This document shows, one piece after another, positions 32,005-41,184 of a stretch of DNA of 41,215 nt. Within the stretch, counting starts at the first letter, position 1. Each line of letters begins with the position of its first letter. The translations under genes were made by a program, and so were the position numbers. This stretch comes from Candidatus Gottesmanbacteria bacterium CG_4_10_14_0_8_um_filter_37_24 (GTDB lineage: Bacteria > Patescibacteriota > Microgenomatia > 2-02-FULL-39-11), in assembly GCA_002785215.1 (NCBI GenBank), contig PFMK01000045.1, positions 1 through 41,215 on the forward strand, in the 5' to 3' direction. Under the pieces are notes generated by a model, which did not search any database, was not told where the DNA came from, and was given only the letters and a program-made list of their open reading frames with translations.

Positions 32005-33038
32005 ATCTACAAAAGTAGAAATGTACTATCTGTATTTGAGCCTAAAATCTTACTAGAAGATGGATCATCTACAAAAGTAGAAATGTACTATCTGTATTTG
32101 AGCCACCTATTTATGACTCCTAAAACTAATCTACAAAAGTAGAAATGTACTATCTGTATTTGAGCAGGAGAGAGGAGAAAAGACCAATTAAATCTACAAA
32201 AGTAGAAATGTACTATCTGTATTTGAGATCTGATGAAAAAAGAGAATTAGCAAATCTACAAAAGTAGAAATGTACTATCTGTATTTGAGCTTACTGTTAA
32301 TCCTCTGGCGGCAAATCTACAAAAGTAGAAATGTACTATCTGTATTTGAGTTTTTAGTGCTATTGAAAAGTAAAAGATCTACAAAAGTAGAAATGTACTA
32401 TCTGTATTTGAGTTCACCAAGAGTCGGTGGCTCAAACTATCTACAAAAGTAGAAATGTACTATCTGTATTTGAGTGAAACGCTTGGAATAATAGGTCGTA
32501 TATCTACAAAAGTAGAAATGTACTATCTGTATTTGAGCATTCACACAAAGTGTAGACACTATTATCTACAAAAGTAGAAATGTACTATCTGTATTTGAGA
32601 TACATCCTCATATTCAAAATCATCAATCTACAAAAGTAGAAATGTACTATCTGTATTTGAGGAAATTGTAGTATGCTTTATTTATGTATCTACAAAAGTA
32701 GAAATGTACTATCTGTATTTGAGTCATGCGGCATCTATCGGATATTATCATCTACAAAAGTAGAAATGTACTATCTGTATTTGAGGAAGATGATATACTG
32801 AATAATAATCATATCTACAAAAGTAGAAATGTACTATCTGTATTTGAGTTTACATCTTCCTTTAAAACATTTCTTCTATCTACAAAAGTAGAAATGTACT
32901 ATCTGTATTTGAGATCATGAAGCTGTTATTAAAAGGTTATCTACAAAAGTAGAAATGTACTATCTGTATTTGAGTTAAATGGATATGATGTGGCTCTTTA
33001 TAATCTACAAAAGTAGAAATGTACTATCTGTATTTGAG
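32005..33038 (-). CRISPR. CRISPR array: 17 identical 36-nt repeats and 16 spacers of 25-29 nt (type V-A repeat)
   Basis: Plus-strand repeat is ATCTACAAAAGTAGAAATGTACTATCTGTATTTGAG. Starts are at 32005, 32067, 32129, 32192, 32254, 32315, 32377, 32439, 32502, 32564, 32626, 32688, 32750, 32813, 32878, 32939 and 33003. In transcribed (minus) orientation it reads CTCAAATACAGATAGTACATTTCTACTTTTGTAGAT, with a 3' UCUAC-UUUU-GUAGA-U hairpin. Confidence 0.97.
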
Positions 33039-33198: not shown

Positions 33199-33480
33199 CT
33201 ACCCGAAGTATACCACATTTTCGATATCATGATGAGCGCTACCGTAGCGGATGGTTTTTCCTCTACATCCTTCACACACGGGAAAAATTACTATGCTGTC
33301 AGTTTTTGTAAATAATTTTTTATACTTTGCTTCTATCTCCGTGAGAATATTTCTAAGTACCCTTGGGCTATTATGTACGGAAAAGACTGAATATTGCATC
33401 CTGCGGCCGTATTTCTTCAGGAATTTGGCAAATTTACTTCTGGTTTTATTATTAGTGAAATCGTAAGAAACTATCAACAT
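33199..33480 (-). CDS. cas2: CRISPR-associated endoribonuclease Cas2
   Basis: 93 aa, MLIVSYDFTNNKTRSKFAKFLKKYGRRMQYSVFSV (the ferredoxin-like Cas2 N-terminus). Positioned 4 nt after cas1. Confidence 0.9.
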   Translation of the reverse strand: MLIVSYDFTNNKTRSKFAKFLKKYGRRMQYSVFSVHNSPRVLRNILTEIEAKYKKLFTKTDSIVIFPVCEGCRGKTIRYGSAHHDIENVVYFG

Positions 33481-33484
33481 ATAA

Positions 33485-34438
33485 TTATATTTGAAATTCA
33501 GGGAAAGGATATTTCTTTTTATTCATGATATACCGATAAAAGGCAAGTATATATAGATATATTTCTTCTTTGTTCTGGTCGATTGCCTCCAAGAAAACAG
33601 AGCTATATTTTTTACTGGTAACAAATCCCTTCTTAAATTCAAATCTTCCGTTTCGAAAAAGAAAATCTTTTTCTTTTATCTGTCCCAAATGATAGCTTTT
33701 CAGAAGCTGCCGATCGATAAGCGGCCTTAATGGTTCCATGATATCGCAAGCCAGAGATTTTCTTTGAAAGAAAAGCTGATGATAATACCCTTTATATGTA
33801 TCAAATCCGAATAACCGCAATAGTGAATCACATAAGTTAAAAAGATAAGTATATCCTATATCCAGGAGGAGATTAATGATATCTTCCCTTGTCTGAGGAG
33901 CTCGACGAAGCCAGTTTAGTTTTTGAAACATAGCTCCAAAATATGTTTTACTCACGATTCCCTCAACACCCAGCAACTGTTGTTTATCTTTTATTTTAGC
34001 GAGCATATTTAACGCATTGTCAAGTATCTGATGATCATATGGTTTCTTATATTTTTCCAGCAGTAATTGCTGGTTTCTGATTTTATTTTTTATGATAGCT
34101 GACGAAATGTATAAATCATCTTTCGTAGTATACTGCTTCTGCCTAAGAAGATAATTTCCCTCAGACTCAGCCATGACGGCCGCAAGGGTACGCAGATTAT
34201 GATTCAGGAAAAATACGGAGATACCATATGAAGTAAGTTTTTTCAGTAAAGCAGTTGTGATGCTCATCTCCCCGACAATAAATACTGCCAATACTGTATG
34301 GCAGGACATCTGATCTATGGCCTCTCCGTCACGTACGAAACGTATGTTGTCATTCGTCAACTGAAGAAGATTGTCTGATCTATATTCTGCCTGCACATAG
34401 AGAATATGTTTTTCCCTGAAATCAGGTAGTGTTAACAT
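33485..34438 (-). CDS. cas1: CRISPR-associated endonuclease Cas1
   Basis: 317 aa, typical Cas1 length. C-terminal alpha-domain segment DIMEPLRPLIDR. Lies between cas4 and cas2 and overlaps cas4 by 17 nt. Confidence 0.9.
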   Translation of the reverse strand: MLTLPDFREKHILYVQAEYRSDNLLQLTNDNIRFVRDGEAIDQMSCHTVLAVFIVGEMSITTALLKKLTSYGISVFFLNHNLRTLAAVMAESEGNYLLRQKQYTTKDDLYISSAIIKNKIRNQQLLLEKYKKPYDHQILDNALNMLAKIKDKQQLLGVEGIVSKTYFGAMFQKLNWLRRAPQTREDIINLLLDIGYTYLFNLCDSLLRLFGFDTYKGYYHQLFFQRKSLACDIMEPLRPLIDRQLLKSYHLGQIKEKDFLFRNGRFEFKKGFVTSKKYSSVFLEAIDQNKEEIYLYILAFYRYIMNKKKYPFPEFQI

Positions 34439-34988
34439 AGGTATTTGAATTACATAACTGGTGATAAATACAATTTGTGCATTTAGCCGGATTTGGATGC
34501 AATTTTACGGAGTCAATCATAAAATTGTGTATACTAGTGATAATATCCTCGAACTTTTTTTGCTGATTTTGGTCTGGTAATTCGACCTCGTAGCGTTTGT
34601 TATCCTTCAATGAGTGTAAAAACATTTTCCTAACCGGTAAATTTGCTTCAAAAAGACAATACATCTGTGCGTATAATTGATACCGGTGACCGTCAAATAT
34701 TGTCCTGATGTGGTATTTCCGCTCAATAAGAAATTCATTTTCCAGGTTATAGATATCAATTTTGCCTTTTATACCAAGCCGGCTGCTATAGACCGATAGT
34801 CCCTGGAGAATGCGGCTGGAAGTAGTATAAATAGCAGAATCGATAGTTTCGTGGGCGATTTTTCCTCTTGTTTGGGCTTTGTCATGATAGACAGTGGTGT
34901 CAAAGGAACTATAAATACTATGGTAATAGAGGGAAAGAGGGCAGAAAATGAAATCGTTTATCGCAGATATAGGTATGGCTGAGTCCAT
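34422..34988 (-). CDS. cas4: CRISPR-associated exonuclease Cas4 (RecB-like, Fe-S cluster)
   Basis: 188 aa. N-terminal FIFCPLSLYY Cys plus C-terminal CTNCIYHQLC gives the 4-Cys pattern. A D...E.K-type core is present (IDIYNLENEFLIERKY). Confidence 0.85.
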   Translation of the reverse strand: MDSAIPISAINDFIFCPLSLYYHSIYSSFDTTVYHDKAQTRGKIAHETIDSAIYTTSSRILQGLSVYSSRLGIKGKIDIYNLENEFLIERKYHIRTIFDGHRYQLYAQMYCLFEANLPVRKMFLHSLKDNKRYEVELPDQNQQKKFEDIITSIHNFMIDSVKLHPNPAKCTNCIYHQLCNSNTYVNTT

Positions 34989-35016: not shown

Positions 35017-38000
35017 TTATGCTTTTTTGGAGGAAACAAGGGCGAGGTATTTATCATATTCCTGTTGGGTGACGGTTAATCCTCCATACTCAATTTCTTC
35101 AAGCCTCTTCGCTTTATTAATTTTCTGTAAAATCAGGATTCCTTTTCTGGCAATATTATAAGCGCCGTTTGCATCTCCATTGAACTCAAATGGTTTTTTA
35201 CCCTTATATCTTTTAGTAAGAGTTATTAAATTGTTCTCAGAATGAAAATAGCAATGAGGGCAGGAAATAAAATCTCTGTATTTTTCATTATTCTCATTTT
35301 GATTTATTTCAATGGTTGTATTTCTTAATTGGAGAATTAAAGAAATTATATATATAAAAGGCTTATAAAAATTTTCATTTTCAAAATTTCTAGTTTTAAT
35401 TAACTGTGAAATATTTGAAAAATTTTGGAAATTTATTCCATTTTCATGAAATAATTTTTTCAAAGAATCATTAGGGTATTTAAGTTCTACTTTCCCACCA
35501 CGATTATTTTGATCTCTTATATACTTGAATCTTTCTACATTTGAATAAAAGGTAAAGTCATCTGGTAATTTAGTGTTACTATATAGTTTCACCTTCGAAT
35601 CATCCTCTTTCTCTTTTTCTGATTTGATAAAATCACTTCTTTTGTAGCGGAAACAGAATCTGTCTTTGTCTGGATCATAAACGATATTAAATTTATTGAT
35701 AAGATCGATATTTTTTTCAATTTTTTCTACAAAAGTGGAGATGTTTTTGCGAAAACCGCAAGCAGGGCAAATAGCAGAGGTATAACTTGCAGGTACATAG
35801 AATATGATTCCGCACTGTTTGCCGATATCCTGGAAATTAATTACTGGTGGGGTGAGCTGGTATGCCTGCAAAAAGTGGCCTGTTTCTTCCTCTTTTGCAT
35901 CTTTAAATACCATGTAATTTAATTTTTTTGCAAGAGCTAATTCGAGATTTTGGTATATCTGTTTTTCAATAGCGAAGCGGCCACGTTTAAAACCTATATT
36001 GAGATCCTCAAACACAACAATCGCTTCATATTTTCTTATTAATTTGCAGATTTGATGTACAACTTGGGAAATATACCCCTTTTTCATCTCTTTTATGGAG
36101 GATATTTCCTGCCAGGATTTTCTTTGCCAATCTCTCTCTTTTTGAATCTGATCCAGTTTTTTCTGATAATCTGTTGGTTCTCTGTCTTCCCGTTCCTGGA
36201 CTTCATTGAAAGAATCAGTTTCAAGGATATTACCTTGATGATCAATCACAGAATAATATGCTAAATTTTTTTCTCCTCTATCAATTCCAATGATCTTAAC
36301 TTTAGAGTTATTTCTTATTGTGTTACAGATTTTTGTATTTATTTTCCAATCATTTTCAGTAAAATTAATTGAAACAGGACAATGGAAATAGATTTTGTTT
36401 TGAGTAAAACGTTTCTTATGAAATATATTATTATTTTTCTTTATTATTTTTATTTGATTTTTAACTGTAATAATAGGATCTTTAGTCAAGTTTTTAGTTA
36501 GTTTCCGATAAAATAGTTCCGCTCCACCATTCAGTTTTAATATAGTTTTTTTAAAGTTTGTATTACTAAATAGTGCCTTCCAGTAAATTGAGTGTAAATT
36601 TCTTCTACCATTCTTATCTTTAAAGTTATAACCCTTAGGAGCGATATTCTCATCAAGTTCAAAGTCTTTGTTATATATCTGAAATAGATAAAGTCTTCCA
36701 CTTTCTATTAGTTCATATAGCTTGCTAAAATTTATATTCTCCCAGGTGACTTTATAGCATGACCGTGTAGCATCTTTGTAAAAATCGGAGATATTATCGT
36801 ATTCACTAGTCTCCTGCCATTTAAAACTAAAGCCTTTGTAAGATTCATGCTGACTTATGCCTAATTTAAAGTAGTCTATTATCTTTTTCAGAGATTCATG
36901 ATAGTTTTGACTGCTTTTATTTGAAGTCTTGAACAAGCCCTTATCGTAAATATTTAACACTGAGTCTATTGGTAAGTTATATTTTTTTACGGCTGGGGCG
37001 AAGTTTGATCCACTTGAGCGAATAAACAGTTTGGGAAAGTTCTTAAAATCTGGTTTTTGATAATTATAGACTAATCTTAGGCTTATATTATTATTTCTGA
37101 TATCTAAATAAAGTTGTTCTATTTCATCCTTAGTGAATTTTGTTCCGTTAATAATTCCTAGATAATATTTTTCATTCTTTTCAAATATTAAAGCACCATA
37201 ACTATCATAGTTTTTTGACCAGCCGCTTAGTAATGAACTGCACTCAAAATTCAACTTAATCTTTTCGGAGTTATATGGTTTTTTAGTCAAATAATTCCTA
37301 AAAACATTAAAATATTTCCAAGTATTGATATTTTCATAATATTCTTTGAACTTTTCATAGAAACCACCAATAGCGTCCTCATCCAGTGCCTCAGGATTCC
37401 AGACTCTTTCTTTTCCCTTTTCCAAAGAAAAATATTTCATCATCAGATAGATATCAAAAACAGATTGTGTATAATCAAGAAACTTTTCTTTTTGGATGCT
37501 TCCTTTTTTTCCAGACTTAAGCCTCCCTTTCTTATTGGGAAGGTATTTTTTATCTTCTGTTATCATTTTTTCTATTTCCTTTGTCTCATTTAGATAGATA
37601 TCTGTCGCTTTTTCAAACTCTTTTTCCCAGATTTTAAGAAATATTTGATAGAAGTCAGATCCCTCTTCTAGAATATCCCGATATTCTTTCCTAAATAGAT
37701 CATTAACCTCTACAATATTTTGAGTCTTTTGTAACGCAGCTTTTAAGGATGTTACTGAAATAAAATCTGGTATATTTTTTTTATCTTTTGGGATTAACAG
37801 GTTTCTTATCGTATTCCAATTGGAAAACCATTTATTTGAGATAGTATTAATAAACCGTTTTGCTACATAAATTTGGCTGATATTATATTCATCTGATTTT
37901 ACTTTTTGGCTAGAAATAAATTTCTTGAAAATCGACTTTGCCTTTGGAATGCATATTTTGTTTTCGTTAATAAATTTTTGCATAGTTGGAAAAACATCTT

Positions 38001-38985
38001 CATCCTGAAAAATTTCGATGAAACTATCCTGTTCGATTTCTTGTTTACTAGGTTGGCTTAAAATTTGTTTGAAAAGTCTTTTGAAAAAAGGAAGGTCTTT
38101 TTTGCTAACCTCAGGATTGTTTTGACGCAGTTGGTTAACATTCGAATTTATCAGTGCAATGGTATTATTGTAACCATCAATCTGTTTTTGACTGAAACAG
38201 TTGTTGAAATAGAATAAAACAAAAATTCTAAGTTCATTTTTCGCAAAAACTGATTTATGTTTTTTCGAATATTTTGACTCAAATATTTTCTTATTCTCCA
38301 GGAATATGCTTAAGTTATCATTGATGATTCTTGTAGGAATAGCGGTAGAAGTGCCATCGTCTTTATAAAAATTTATTCTTGTTTCATGAAATTTTTTAAA
38401 ATAACAGCCGAATTTATTAAATGGATCAAAAATGCTTTTTCCATTAATCTGGGCTTCTGGATATTTATATTTGAGAAAATCAAAAACTTCTACTTTGAAA
38501 AACAGTTCAATCCCTTTTGTTCCCTCTTTGATTTTTTTCAGTTTCTTTTCTAATTCTTTTTTTTGCTGTTTTTCATTTTTGTTTTTTAATGTTTGCTCAA
38601 TATTTTTTAAATATCGATTTTTCCACTGATCAGCTTCAGTGTTAAAGCTTTTTAAGAGAATAGTTCTGAGTCTTTTGGCAATTTTTTCCAGATCTATTCT
38701 ACTTGCTCTGGATGGATTTAGTTTATGAGAAAAGTATTTTTGTTCATAACCTTCTAGAAGATTTTCTGGTAAGTTTGTATGCGAAAAAGCATCTTTGATA
38801 AATTCTTTGTGGAGTCTGTCGAAATACTTTTTGACATCTTTATAGTTTTCAGCGATTTTTTCATCTTTTTCAAAAACATGGTTTTTCTCCAAGAGTTCTT
38901 TGGTTCGACCTACTGGGATAAGTTCAAAACGGAGTGTTTTTTGCAGTTCATAGAGGTGAGTAAAATCCTTAAAAATACCAGTCAT
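35017..38985 (-). CDS. cas12a: Cas12a (Cpf1), type V-A single effector nuclease
   Basis: 1322 aa. N-terminal LYELQKTLRFELIPVGRT. RuvC-I IIGIDRGEKNLAYYSV (D902), RuvC-II AIVVFEDLNIGFKRGR (E993), RuvC-III FNGDANGAYNIARKG (D1271), and Nuc-lid LILQLRN (R1221). There is no HNH domain. The matching repeat hairpin lies in the adjacent array. Confidence 0.95.
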   Translation of the reverse strand: MTGIFKDFTHLYELQKTLRFELIPVGRTKELLEKNHVFEKDEKIAENYKDVKKYFDRLHKEFIKDAFSHTNLPENLLEGYEQKYFSHKLNPSRASRIDLEKIAKRLRTILLKSFNTEADQWKNRYLKNIEQTLKNKNEKQQKKELEKKLKKIKEGTKGIELFFKVEVFDFLKYKYPEAQINGKSIFDPFNKFGCYFKKFHETRINFYKDDGTSTAIPTRIINDNLSIFLENKKIFESKYSKKHKSVFAKNELRIFVLFYFNNCFSQKQIDGYNNTIALINSNVNQLRQNNPEVSKKDLPFFKRLFKQILSQPSKQEIEQDSFIEIFQDEDVFPTMQKFINENKICIPKAKSIFKKFISSQKVKSDEYNISQIYVAKRFINTISNKWFSNWNTIRNLLIPKDKKNIPDFISVTSLKAALQKTQNIVEVNDLFRKEYRDILEEGSDFYQIFLKIWEKEFEKATDIYLNETKEIEKMITEDKKYLPNKKGRLKSGKKGSIQKEKFLDYTQSVFDIYLMMKYFSLEKGKERVWNPEALDEDAIGGFYEKFKEYYENINTWKYFNVFRNYLTKKPYNSEKIKLNFECSSLLSGWSKNYDSYGALIFEKNEKYYLGIINGTKFTKDEIEQLYLDIRNNNISLRLVYNYQKPDFKNFPKLFIRSSGSNFAPAVKKYNLPIDSVLNIYDKGLFKTSNKSSQNYHESLKKIIDYFKLGISQHESYKGFSFKWQETSEYDNISDFYKDATRSCYKVTWENINFSKLYELIESGRLYLFQIYNKDFELDENIAPKGYNFKDKNGRRNLHSIYWKALFSNTNFKKTILKLNGGAELFYRKLTKNLTKDPIITVKNQIKIIKKNNNIFHKKRFTQNKIYFHCPVSINFTENDWKINTKICNTIRNNSKVKIIGIDRGEKNLAYYSVIDHQGNILETDSFNEVQEREDREPTDYQKKLDQIQKERDWQRKSWQEISSIKEMKKGYISQVVHQICKLIRKYEAIVVFEDLNIGFKRGRFAIEKQIYQNLELALAKKLNYMVFKDAKEEETGHFLQAYQLTPPVINFQDIGKQCGIIFYVPASYTSAICPACGFRKNISTFVEKIEKNIDLINKFNIVYDPDKDRFCFRYKRSDFIKSEKEKEDDSKVKLYSNTKLPDDFTFYSNVERFKYIRDQNNRGGKVELKYPNDSLKKLFHENGINFQNFSNISQLIKTRNFENENFYKPFIYIISLILQLRNTTIEINQNENNEKYRDFISCPHCYFHSENNLITLTKRYKGKKPFEFNGDANGAYNIARKGILILQKINKAKRLEEIEYGGLTVTQQEYDKYLALVSSKKA

Positions 38986-39039: not shown

Positions 39040-41184
39040 TTATGCCTCAGGCCAGAGGGTTATTATAAGTGGCATCTTGTTCTCAGGATCTATTTGGGTT
39101 TTAATTTCCTCTGTTATAAACGGCATAAAGGGATGCAGAAGAGTAAGACTTTGTATGAATACATAAATAAGTACAGATAATGTTTCCTTATCATTATTGT
39201 GCAGTCTTTCCTTTGAAGATTCTATGTATTTATCCGCTAATTCATGCCAAATGAATTCATAAAGAAGGTCTGCGGCTCTTGAAAAATTGTACTTTTCAAA
39301 ATCAGATGTTACTGATTTGATCAATTCGTCTGTTTTGTCTAATATATTTTTATTGTCCGGATGCAGTTTACTTCTGCTGGATGACTGGCTAAAAGTAATG
39401 GATTCCGCGTTATTTTTTCCGATAAATTCAGAATTCATTTTTATAAATCTCGCCATATTCCACAGTTTGTTTGTAAAATTCCTCATCGCCCGTATTTTAT
39501 CTTCAGACATAGGCAAATCGTTGCCTAATGCACTTCCAAAAATAAGAGCCATTCTTAAAGCGTCTGCGCTGTAAGTATCTGCCATAATCAGGGGATTTAT
39601 TACGTTCCCTTTGGACTTGCTCATTTTTTGACCCTTCGAATCGCGGACAAGACCATGCAAAACCACTCTTCTGAATGGGACTTTGTTTGTAACGTACAAT
39701 CCCAGCATGATCATCCGGCACACCCACCAGGGTAATATGTCATAGCCTGTTTCCATGACGCTCGTGGGGTAGAAATACTCATAATTCTTCATACTGTTTA
39801 CCTGAAGAGTAGCGAAAGGCCATTGTCCAGAAGAAAACCATGTATCAAAAGTGTCAGGATCCTGTATAAGATTTTTACCTTTGCATTTAGGACACGAGGA
39901 AGGTGTGTTCCCTTCGGTGACGATCCAATCACTTTCTATTCCGCAGTCTATACACTGCCACGCAGGAATTCTTATTCCCCAGACGATCTGACGGCTGATG
40001 TTCCAATCATGGAAATTTGATAGCCATTGGATGGCAGTTTTTTCAAATCGTTTGGGTGTAAAAACGATACTCTTTTCCCTGATGGCTTTAATTGCCGGAT
40101 CAGTTAATGGTTTTACCCTGACATACCATTGAGGAAGAGGAAGGGGTTCAATTACGTTTCCGCATTTATAACATGTGCCTACGTTGTGGGTATATTTTTC
40201 ATTAATGTGATCGATTAATCCTTTCGCCTTAAGATCCTCTGCAACTTTTATTCTTGCTGCCATGACTTTCATGCCATGATAAGGACCTGTCAGATCAGTA
40301 AGTCTTCCGTTGTAGCCGATCACTTGTTTCATGGGTAATTTATGCCGGAGTCCCATTTCGAAATCTGTCACATCATGGGCCGGTGTAACTTTTACCACTC
40401 CTGTTCCGAATTTCGGGTCTACAGCTTCATCTGCAATAACAGATAATTTAAAATCTCCCAATAGTCCCTTAACTTCAAATTCTTTTCCAACATACTTTTT
40501 ATATCTTTTATCAGAAGGGTGTACTGCAACTGCGGTATCGCCGAATTTAGTCTCAGGCCTTGTGGTAGCCAGAATGAAGGGGCCGTATTTTAAATAATAC
40601 AAAGGATCTATTCTTTCCACGTATTTTACTTCCAAATCGGAAAATCCAGTTCCGCATTTCGTGCAGTAGTTTACCAGTCTTTTGCTTCTGTATAAAAGAC
40701 CGTCATTATGAAGTTTTTTGAAAGTTTTATAGACGATTTTTATAACCTTTTCATCCAGCGTAAAAACCTGTTTGGTCCAATCAAGGGAAAATCCCAGACG
40801 TCTTAGTTGGTTTTCCATGTTACCGCGGTTATTCTGGACAAAATCCCAGATCATTTTATAGAGTTCTTCCCGATTGTAATCAAAACGGCTTTTACCCTCT
40901 TTGGTAAGATGTTTTTCAAAAACATACTGTGTTTCAAAACCGGCATGATCTGTTCCAGGAAGCCAAAGAGTAGAGGAGCCAAGCATTCTGTGATAGCGGA
41001 TCATGATGTCTTCAATCACATACATGGCATGACCCAGATGCAGATCCGCATTAGCATTGGGAGGGGGGAGTATTATGGTAAACGGTTTTTTGGAAGGGTT
41101 AATTTTAGGAGTAAAATATCCTTTTTTTTCCCAAAAACTATACCATTTTTTCTCGACTTCTTGATGTTTGTATACTTTGTCCAT
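39040..41184 (-). CDS. valS: valine--tRNA ligase (short form without the C-terminal coiled coil)
   Basis: 714 aa with PPPNANADLHLGHA (HIGH), the editing-domain motifs TTRPETKFGDTAVAVHP and GTGVVKVTPAHD, WNISRQIVWGIRIPAW, and KMSKSKGN. Confidence 0.85.
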   Translation of the reverse strand: MDKVYKHQEVEKKWYSFWEKKGYFTPKINPSKKPFTIILPPPNANADLHLGHAMYVIEDIMIRYHRMLGSSTLWLPGTDHAGFETQYVFEKHLTKEGKSRFDYNREELYKMIWDFVQNNRGNMENQLRRLGFSLDWTKQVFTLDEKVIKIVYKTFKKLHNDGLLYRSKRLVNYCTKCGTGFSDLEVKYVERIDPLYYLKYGPFILATTRPETKFGDTAVAVHPSDKRYKKYVGKEFEVKGLLGDFKLSVIADEAVDPKFGTGVVKVTPAHDVTDFEMGLRHKLPMKQVIGYNGRLTDLTGPYHGMKVMAARIKVAEDLKAKGLIDHINEKYTHNVGTCYKCGNVIEPLPLPQWYVRVKPLTDPAIKAIREKSIVFTPKRFEKTAIQWLSNFHDWNISRQIVWGIRIPAWQCIDCGIESDWIVTEGNTPSSCPKCKGKNLIQDPDTFDTWFSSGQWPFATLQVNSMKNYEYFYPTSVMETGYDILPWWVCRMIMLGLYVTNKVPFRRVVLHGLVRDSKGQKMSKSKGNVINPLIMADTYSADALRMALIFGSALGNDLPMSEDKIRAMRNFTNKLWNMARFIKMNSEFIGKNNAESITFSQSSSRSKLHPDNKNILDKTDELIKSVTSDFEKYNFSRAADLLYEFIWHELADKYIESSKERLHNNDKETLSVLIYVFIQSLTLLHPFMPFITEEIKTQIDPENKMPLIITLWPEA

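Follow-up and report, generated by a model that had tools for sequence, protein, structure and literature searches.

A Cas12a from a Gottesmanbacteria genome with four cysteines that probably form an ancestral zinc ribbon around the Nuc domain

We analysed a 41,215-nucleotide (nt) stretch of DNA, hereafter the window, which is contig PFMK01000045.1 of the genome of Candidatus Gottesmanbacteria bacterium CG_4_10_14_0_8_um_filter_37_24 (GCA_002785215.1; 1.28 Mb, 82% complete). It encodes a cas12a gene, followed downstream on the same strand by cas4, cas1, cas2 and a CRISPR array (Table 1), and the subject of this report is a set of four cysteines (Cys) in the Cas12a protein. The equivalog model TIGR04330 (cas_Cpf1) matches this protein of 1322 amino acids (aa) over its whole length with a score of 752.7 bits (cut-off 300). 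Pfam identified RuvC_1 (E-value 6.6e-84), the REC1 domain PF18501 (1.2e-23) and the Cpf1_PI-like domain PF22222 (1e-22), showing that the REC and protospacer-adjacent motif (PAM)-interacting (PI) domains of the Cas12a type are present. Every one of its best matches among solved structures is a Cas12a chain (ReChb, Fn, Lb2, Mb, Lb, Am and As). The one RuvC active site has a D/E/D triad, interrupted by a Nuc (target-nucleic-acid-binding) domain in which an arginine is conserved. On the coding strand the CRISPR repeat terminates in ...TCTACTTTTGTAGAT, which we take, by comparison with the Fn, Lb and As repeats, to be the Cas12a-type 3′ hairpin handle. Judged from its sequence, the protein is a bona fide Cas12a, the effector of a type V-A system. 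Given the equivalog and Pfam matches, the solved relatives, the adjoining cas4-cas1-cas2-array arrangement and the invariant catalytic residues, the locus is apparently complete and active.

In most respects the window protein resembles canonical Cas12a proteins (FnCas12a, LbCas12a, AsCas12a, MbCas12a, AmCas12a and ReChb; e.g., PDB 5NFV, 5XUS, 5B43, 6IV6, 8KGF and 8QWD). They belong to the same equivalog and Pfam family and share the domain order REC1, PI, RuvC I-II, Nuc, RuvC III, the catalytic triad, the Arg and Asp of the Nuc region, the kind of repeat and the cas4-cas1-cas2 neighbours. The difference lies in the four cysteines. A preliminary description of the window had placed them at residues 1073, 1076, 1242 and 1245, in two CxxC pairs about 165 aa apart that bracket the Nuc region, and translation of the minus strand bears this out: the protein reads YTSAIC1073PAC1076GFRKN and RDFISC1242PHC1245YFHS. 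The interval 35251-35769 is the exact span from the codon of C1245 (35251-35253) to that of C1073 (35767-35769). A plus-strand reading of the same interval was rejected, as its translation is full of stops. C1073 and C1076 (knuckle 1) follow strand beta5, and C1242 and C1245 (knuckle 2) precede the RuvC-III helix, so that the CxxC...CxxC pattern sits between RuvC-II and RuvC-III.

Conservation of the cysteines was assessed in a 136-sequence alignment of the RuvC-Nuc part of the protein (A1; residues 860-1322). Cys fills all four columns in 76 rows, among which pairwise identity falls to 35%, and the other five cysteines of the same part of the window protein are Cys in only 1-63% of these rows. 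We refer to rows with the full set as CCCC. In the 60 rows without it, the first column is D in 49 and C in 11, the second is T or S, the third is S in 60/60 and the fourth is E, A or K. Intermediate sets of two or three cysteines do not occur in any of the 136 rows; in looser survey alignments a few rows have a second Cys in, or next to, one of these columns. CCCC rows have 133-183 aa from knuckle to knuckle and non-Cys Cas12a have 138-175 aa; both classes therefore have a full Nuc domain.

The preliminary description had stated that well-studied Cas12a proteins have other residues at these positions. This holds for AmCas12a (YTSKIDPLTGF/DYISSPI) and ReChb (NTSKIDPTTGF/DYIISPVA), but FnCas12a (FTSKICPVTGF/DYLISPVAD) keeps the first Cys. 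The four positions are thus C/D, T, S and A or another residue in the Fn, Am and ReChb proteins, which have no four-Cys site, whereas they are all Cys in the clade of the window protein. The CCCC state is absent from all five solved Cas12a sequences whose alignments were inspected, these three included. In a clade that includes FnCas12a (P0064, P0065, P0068, P0096, P0108, P0109 and P0116), only the first Cys is kept (C-T-S-x), and it may be a vestige of the ribbon. We also noted that Cas12a proteins from DPANN-type archaeal metagenome-assembled genomes (MAGs; ainarchaeum, Woesearchaeota, Pacearchaeota) and a Methanosarcinales MAG (L012, L023, L028, L049 and L032) read ...ILSCV..., with a Cys one residue past the third column, and some of them have the first Cys as well.

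The two knuckles occupy the position of the zinc ribbon of TnpB and other Cas12 proteins, as the preliminary description had noted; this is supported by a Pfam match at knuckle 1 and by column alignment to the Cas12a2 of a Sulfuricurvum (SuCas12a2). PF07282, the TnpB/Cas12f zinc ribbon, matches residues 1062-1085, that is, knuckle 1, with an E-value of 5e-5 (23.8 bits, two stretches counted). Its positions 30-60 match knuckle 2 of two relatives (P0039 and P0022) weakly (E-value 0.02-0.05). In a genome-wide search with PF07282, knuckle 1 was the sole match (17.5 bits), and neither a TnpB nor a second Cas12 gene was found in the source genome, at its 82% completeness. The Cas12e/CasX equivalog gave a weak, sub-threshold match to residues 109-1087 (57 bits, E-value 8e-16), which ends just past knuckle 1. 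In the TNB domain of TnpB, which has the same topology and the same slot between RuvC strand beta5 and helix alpha4, a CxxC...CxxC pattern (C331/C334/C351/C354 in ISDra2 TnpB) holds a zinc ion (PMC10097598). The TnpB domain is contiguous and about 33 aa long, whereas the ribbon of the window protein is split by a large insert.

The SuCas12a2 sequence came from a search of about 300 genomes of the family (Sulfurimonadaceae) that holds a Sulfurimonas Cas12a locus. One genome encodes a 1234-aa open reading frame (ORF; L094:1300-5004, on contig C15 of genome G025) that matches the Cas12a profile in three pieces. Over its final 145 aa it does not differ from PDB 8D49/8D4A/8D4B, and its twin in the database is a protein of Sulfuricurvum sp. 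PC08-66; on these grounds we identify it as SuCas12a2 (P0258). Seven other genomes of this sample encode ordinary non-Cys Cas12a (D-T/A-S-A). A plain MAFFT alignment of Cas12a and Cas12a2-like proteins misplaced knuckle 1, and all rows were aligned to one Cas12a profile (A1). In this alignment the profile columns of the four cysteines (214/217/369/372) correspond to C1170/C1173/C1188/C1191 of SuCas12a2, whereas nothing in SuCas12a2 corresponds to columns 218-361, which make up the Nuc domain. The flanks are alike too, with (Y/F)TSxxCPxC, D-x-I-x-x-C-x-x-C-x-F-x-S and NGD-x-NGAY, and the SuCas12a2 motif DDILVC has an Asp that matches D1238 of the window protein. The arginine R1221 of the window protein aligns with that of the Fn LQMRN motif, which we take to be FnCas12a R1218. 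Among Cas12a2-4-like rows, 38/63 are CCCC in the same columns and most of the others are only partly aligned there. One Cas12a2-like protein of 1717 aa (P0326) has both the zinc ribbon and precomputed SMC/AAA ATPase Pfam matches (PF02463, PF13304) and may be a fusion.

The four-Cys module of SuCas12a2 has been described as a zinc ribbon (PMC9849127), as have those of Cas12a2 and Cas12a3 generally (PMC9849127; bioRxiv 10.64898/2026.01.16.699850), and C-to-S mutants at the conserved zinc-finger cysteines of SuCas12a2 lost collateral cleavage (PMC9811890). In Cas12a2/a3/a4 the zinc ribbon is said to stand "in place of" the Nuc domain of Cas12a (PMC9811890, PMC9849127). In the window protein the two knuckles bracket the Nuc domain, and because of this Nuc looks like an insert inside the ribbon, not a replacement of it. 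SuCas12a2 has 14 residues between its knuckles, a compact ribbon, compared with the 165 aa and complete Nuc domain of the window protein. Further differences are that Cas12a2 has an insertion domain instead of a bridge helix and is only 10-20% identical to Cas12a (PMC9849127), and that SuCas12a2 matches no NCBIfam model. With its Nuc domain and strong TIGR04330 match, the window protein was rejected as a Cas12a2, Cas12a3 or Cas12a4.

We modelled residues 860-1322 with AlphaFold2, using A1 as the input alignment. The model has a mean predicted local distance difference test score (pLDDT) of 90.2 and a predicted template modelling score (pTM) of 0.91, and both knuckle blocks reach at least 95 in pLDDT. 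Compared by Foldseek with the RuvC-Nuc part of Cas12a structures, it gave template modelling (TM) scores of 0.70-0.79.

Table 1. Features of the cas12a locus in the window; positions are those of the whole window.
Feature	Position	Strand	Basis
cas12a (1322 aa)	35017..38985	-	TIGR04330, Pfam domains, best solved matches Cas12a chains
cas4	34422..34988	-	PF01930, 2.3e-13
cas1	33485..34438	-	PF01867, 2.2e-52
cas2	33199..33480	-	PF09827, 1.7e-17
CRISPR array	32005..33038	-	17 copies, 36-nt repeat; minus-strand 3′ end ...CATTTCTACTTTTGTAGAT
Zinc knuckle 1 (putative), C1073-P-A-C1076, directly after RuvC-II strand beta5	35758..35769	-	PF07282 match, SuCas12a2 C1170/C1173, pLDDT 95
Nuc (TNB) domain insert, residues 1077-1241, 165 aa between knuckles	35263..35757	-	model columns 218-361, Foldseek
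Zinc knuckle 2 (putative), C1242-P-H-C1245, ~26 aa before RuvC-III	35251..35262	-	SuCas12a2 C1188/C1191, pLDDT 97
RuvC-I Asp902 (IGIDRGE)	36280..36282	-	invariant in A1
RuvC-II Glu993 (VFEDLN)	36007..36009	-	invariant in A1
RuvC-III Asp1271 (NGDANGAYNIA)	35173..35175	-	invariant in A1
R1221, Nuc-domain arginine	35323..35325	-	Arg in 135/136 A1 rows; aligns with R of Fn LQMRN
D1238, four residues before knuckle 2	35272..35274	-	Asp in 136/136 A1 rows; aligns with FnCas12a D1227

The four cysteines are not a peculiarity of this ortholog, as the preliminary description had supposed; they characterise a Cas12a clade that is both large and deep. In samples of sequence clusters, which are biased to relatives of the query, all four Cys are present in 75 of the 120 nearest 90%-identity clusters and in 37 of the best 150 50%-identity representatives (25%), scored out of 752 such clusters found below 1e-30. 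GTDB data, with one genome per species, carry the same bias, and there the best 80 of at least 486 Cas12a loci include seven with all four Cys and three truncated genes with the first pair. These ten loci are mostly from Patescibacteria-type MAGs (Moranbacteria, Saccharibacteria, Wildermuthbacteria, Doudnabacteria and Peribacteria). Among 400 genomes drawn evenly from the source phylum, 13 others encode Cas12a, two of them CCCC, ten non-Cys and one cut off. The CCCC state is still a minority among the Cas12a orthologs surveyed, contrary to what the preliminary description had said would make it not unusual, its presence in most orthologs, yet it is widespread and old. No characterised ortholog was found among the members of the CCCC clade, whose names are only generic "Cas12a/Cpf1" annotations of MAGs. 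We found no description of an intact zinc ribbon in a bona fide Cas12a in the literature searched, though the foundational Cas12a papers, which lay outside the search, may show it.

When the knuckle columns were left out of tree building, the CCCC rows grouped essentially into a single deep clade, with only two changes needed. A few non-Cys rows (P0133, P0231, P0152, P0207 and P0191) are nested in this otherwise all-Cys clade; these rows probably lost the ribbon secondarily and independently of each other, or are misplaced by long-branch effects. We rooted trees with Cas12a2-4-like outgroups, using 200 shared columns. FastTree placed the CCCC rows as a basal grade and recovered the non-Cys rows as a crown with support of 99. 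Because the same ribbon occurs in the outgroup and in TnpB, retention is more parsimonious than regain; the four-Cys trait is probably ancestral.

Given the position of the ribbon, the PF07282 matches and the alignment to the zinc-finger cysteines of SuCas12a2, the best reading is that of a zinc-binding, ancestral feature: a Cas12a that has kept an ancestral zinc ribbon framing its Nuc domain, whose four cysteines likely bind one structural zinc. We consider this explanation probable, and the zinc-ribbon part of it, a matter of sequence comparison, is well supported. The Nuc domain would be framed by two CxxC knuckles of the kind found in TnpB, most Cas12 subtypes and Cas12a2/a3/a4, and C1073, C1076, C1242 and C1245 would together coordinate a single structural zinc ion. 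This ion would hold together the strands that lead into and out of the 165-aa Nuc insert at the junction with the RuvC core, beside the functionally important R1221 and D1238. In well-studied Cas12a the site appears to have been swapped for conserved polar residues (D/C, T/S, S and E/A/K). The Cys state would most simply be ancestral, kept by one large Cas12a clade that is mostly associated with the candidate phyla radiation and lost elsewhere.

Several observations weigh against this explanation. The PF07282 score of 23.8 bits is under the Pfam gathering threshold of 26.3, a shortfall that we attribute to the 165-aa insert, which splits the profile, and no PF07282 match was reported when knuckle 2 of the window protein was scanned alone. 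Zinc and iron are not distinguishable from sequence alone. The root of Cas12a is unstable: a quick search with IQ-TREE under C20 attached the outgroup inside the non-Cys rows, which would require several independent losses. The rooting uses only 200 shared columns, and the outgroup branch is very long, at 2.4 changes per site. Because the FastTree and IQ-TREE C20 roots differ, we do not claim that the CCCC clade branches earliest. The preliminary description had proposed a "zinc-binding, evolutionarily intermediate" Cas12a; homology to zinc ribbons speaks for the first half of this, and the trees, whose root shifts between methods, do not establish the second half in the sense of early branching. 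When the 32 sampled non-Cys crown rows were constrained to one clade, the log-likelihood (lnL) was 13.6 better than that of the free quick tree (approximately unbiased test, p-AU 0.71). One main loss of the cysteines is fully compatible with the data. The quick tree is also what favours a secondary regain, in which a Cas12a ancestor had no cysteines and the clade re-evolved four at the same positions, as it nests the CCCC clade (27 rows with 4 non-Cys rows, SH-like approximate likelihood ratio test 99) and puts the outgroup among non-Cys rows. However, regain would need four coordinated changes in the exact columns of the Cas12a2-4 and TnpB-type ribbons, the flanks YTSxxCPxCG and D-x-I-x-C-x-x-C-x-F-x-S are shared as well, the nodes that nest the CCCC clade are weakly supported, and a single non-Cys crown fits better (lnL +13.6). 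We therefore regard regain as very unlikely.

The same cysteines could serve otherwise than in a structural zinc site, as an Fe(Cys)4 centre like that of rubredoxin or as a pair of redox-sensitive disulfides that tunes the nuclease in an anaerobic host. CPxCG is a rubredoxin knuckle as well, candidate phyla radiation bacteria are commonly anaerobes, the host genome is small and, as noted, sequence does not tell the two metals apart. On the other hand, there is no hint of redox partners at the locus, the homologous four-Cys site of TnpB binds zinc (PMC10097598) and the Cas12a2 and Cas12a3 modules are described as zinc ribbons (PMC9849127; bioRxiv 10.64898/2026.01.16.699850), which makes an iron or redox role quite unlikely. 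Another account, compatible with a retained zinc ribbon, is that the ribbon marks a functionally distinct Cas12a lineage, different in trans-cleavage, substrate or temperature, and is not a neutral relic. The ribbon-bearing sister clades Cas12a2/a3/a4 differ strongly in activity (PMC9811890, PMC12851939), and no CCCC-clade member is among the solved structures or was found in the literature searched. Yet the Cas12a equivalog model accepts the window protein along its full length, the PI domain, the RuvC triad, R1221 and D1238 are all retained, the Nuc domain is of ordinary size, and the accompanying repeat has a Cas12a-type handle, with no sign of RNA targeting; we judge a distinct function unlikely. 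As for two functionless CxxC motifs arising by chance, the protein has 14 Cys (1.06%), for which 0.15 CxxC motifs are expected, and two or more would occur with a probability of about 0.01 per protein of such composition, no negligible chance over an entire scan. Conservation carries far more weight than this statistic: the invariance of the four positions in 76 sequences effectively refutes chance, and their alignment with a known zinc ribbon speaks against it too, so that this explanation is exceedingly improbable.

Upstream of cas12a, a class I aminoacyl-tRNA synthetase gene (714 aa; tRNA-synt_1 and Anticodon_1) at 39040-41184 on the minus strand ends 54 nt before the cas12a start. A Pfam scan of the five ORFs adjoining cas12a identified no mobile-element genes.

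A retained zinc ribbon also permits a more specific, tentative scenario, in which the stem of type V-A survives in the CCCC Cas12a lineages, the Nuc domain was inserted into the loop of a compact Cas12a2/TnpB-like ribbon, and the metal site was later lost once, in the line that led to the Cas12a proteins used in the laboratory. If true, this scenario would order the events in the split of RNA-triggered Cas12a2-4 from DNA-cutting Cas12a. The value of the finding is limited, as the trait is common in uncultivated lineages and nothing suggests a new mechanism of immunity. The CCCC trait is a useful evolutionary marker of a clade and a sensible subject for bench work, but does not amount to a new type of system. 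Proteins of the window type carry both the Nuc domain and the putative zinc ribbon, which helps to reconstruct the origin of type V-A. They also represent an untested pool of Cas12a with a putatively metal-clamped Nuc-RuvC junction, in which stability or trans-cleavage may be affected.

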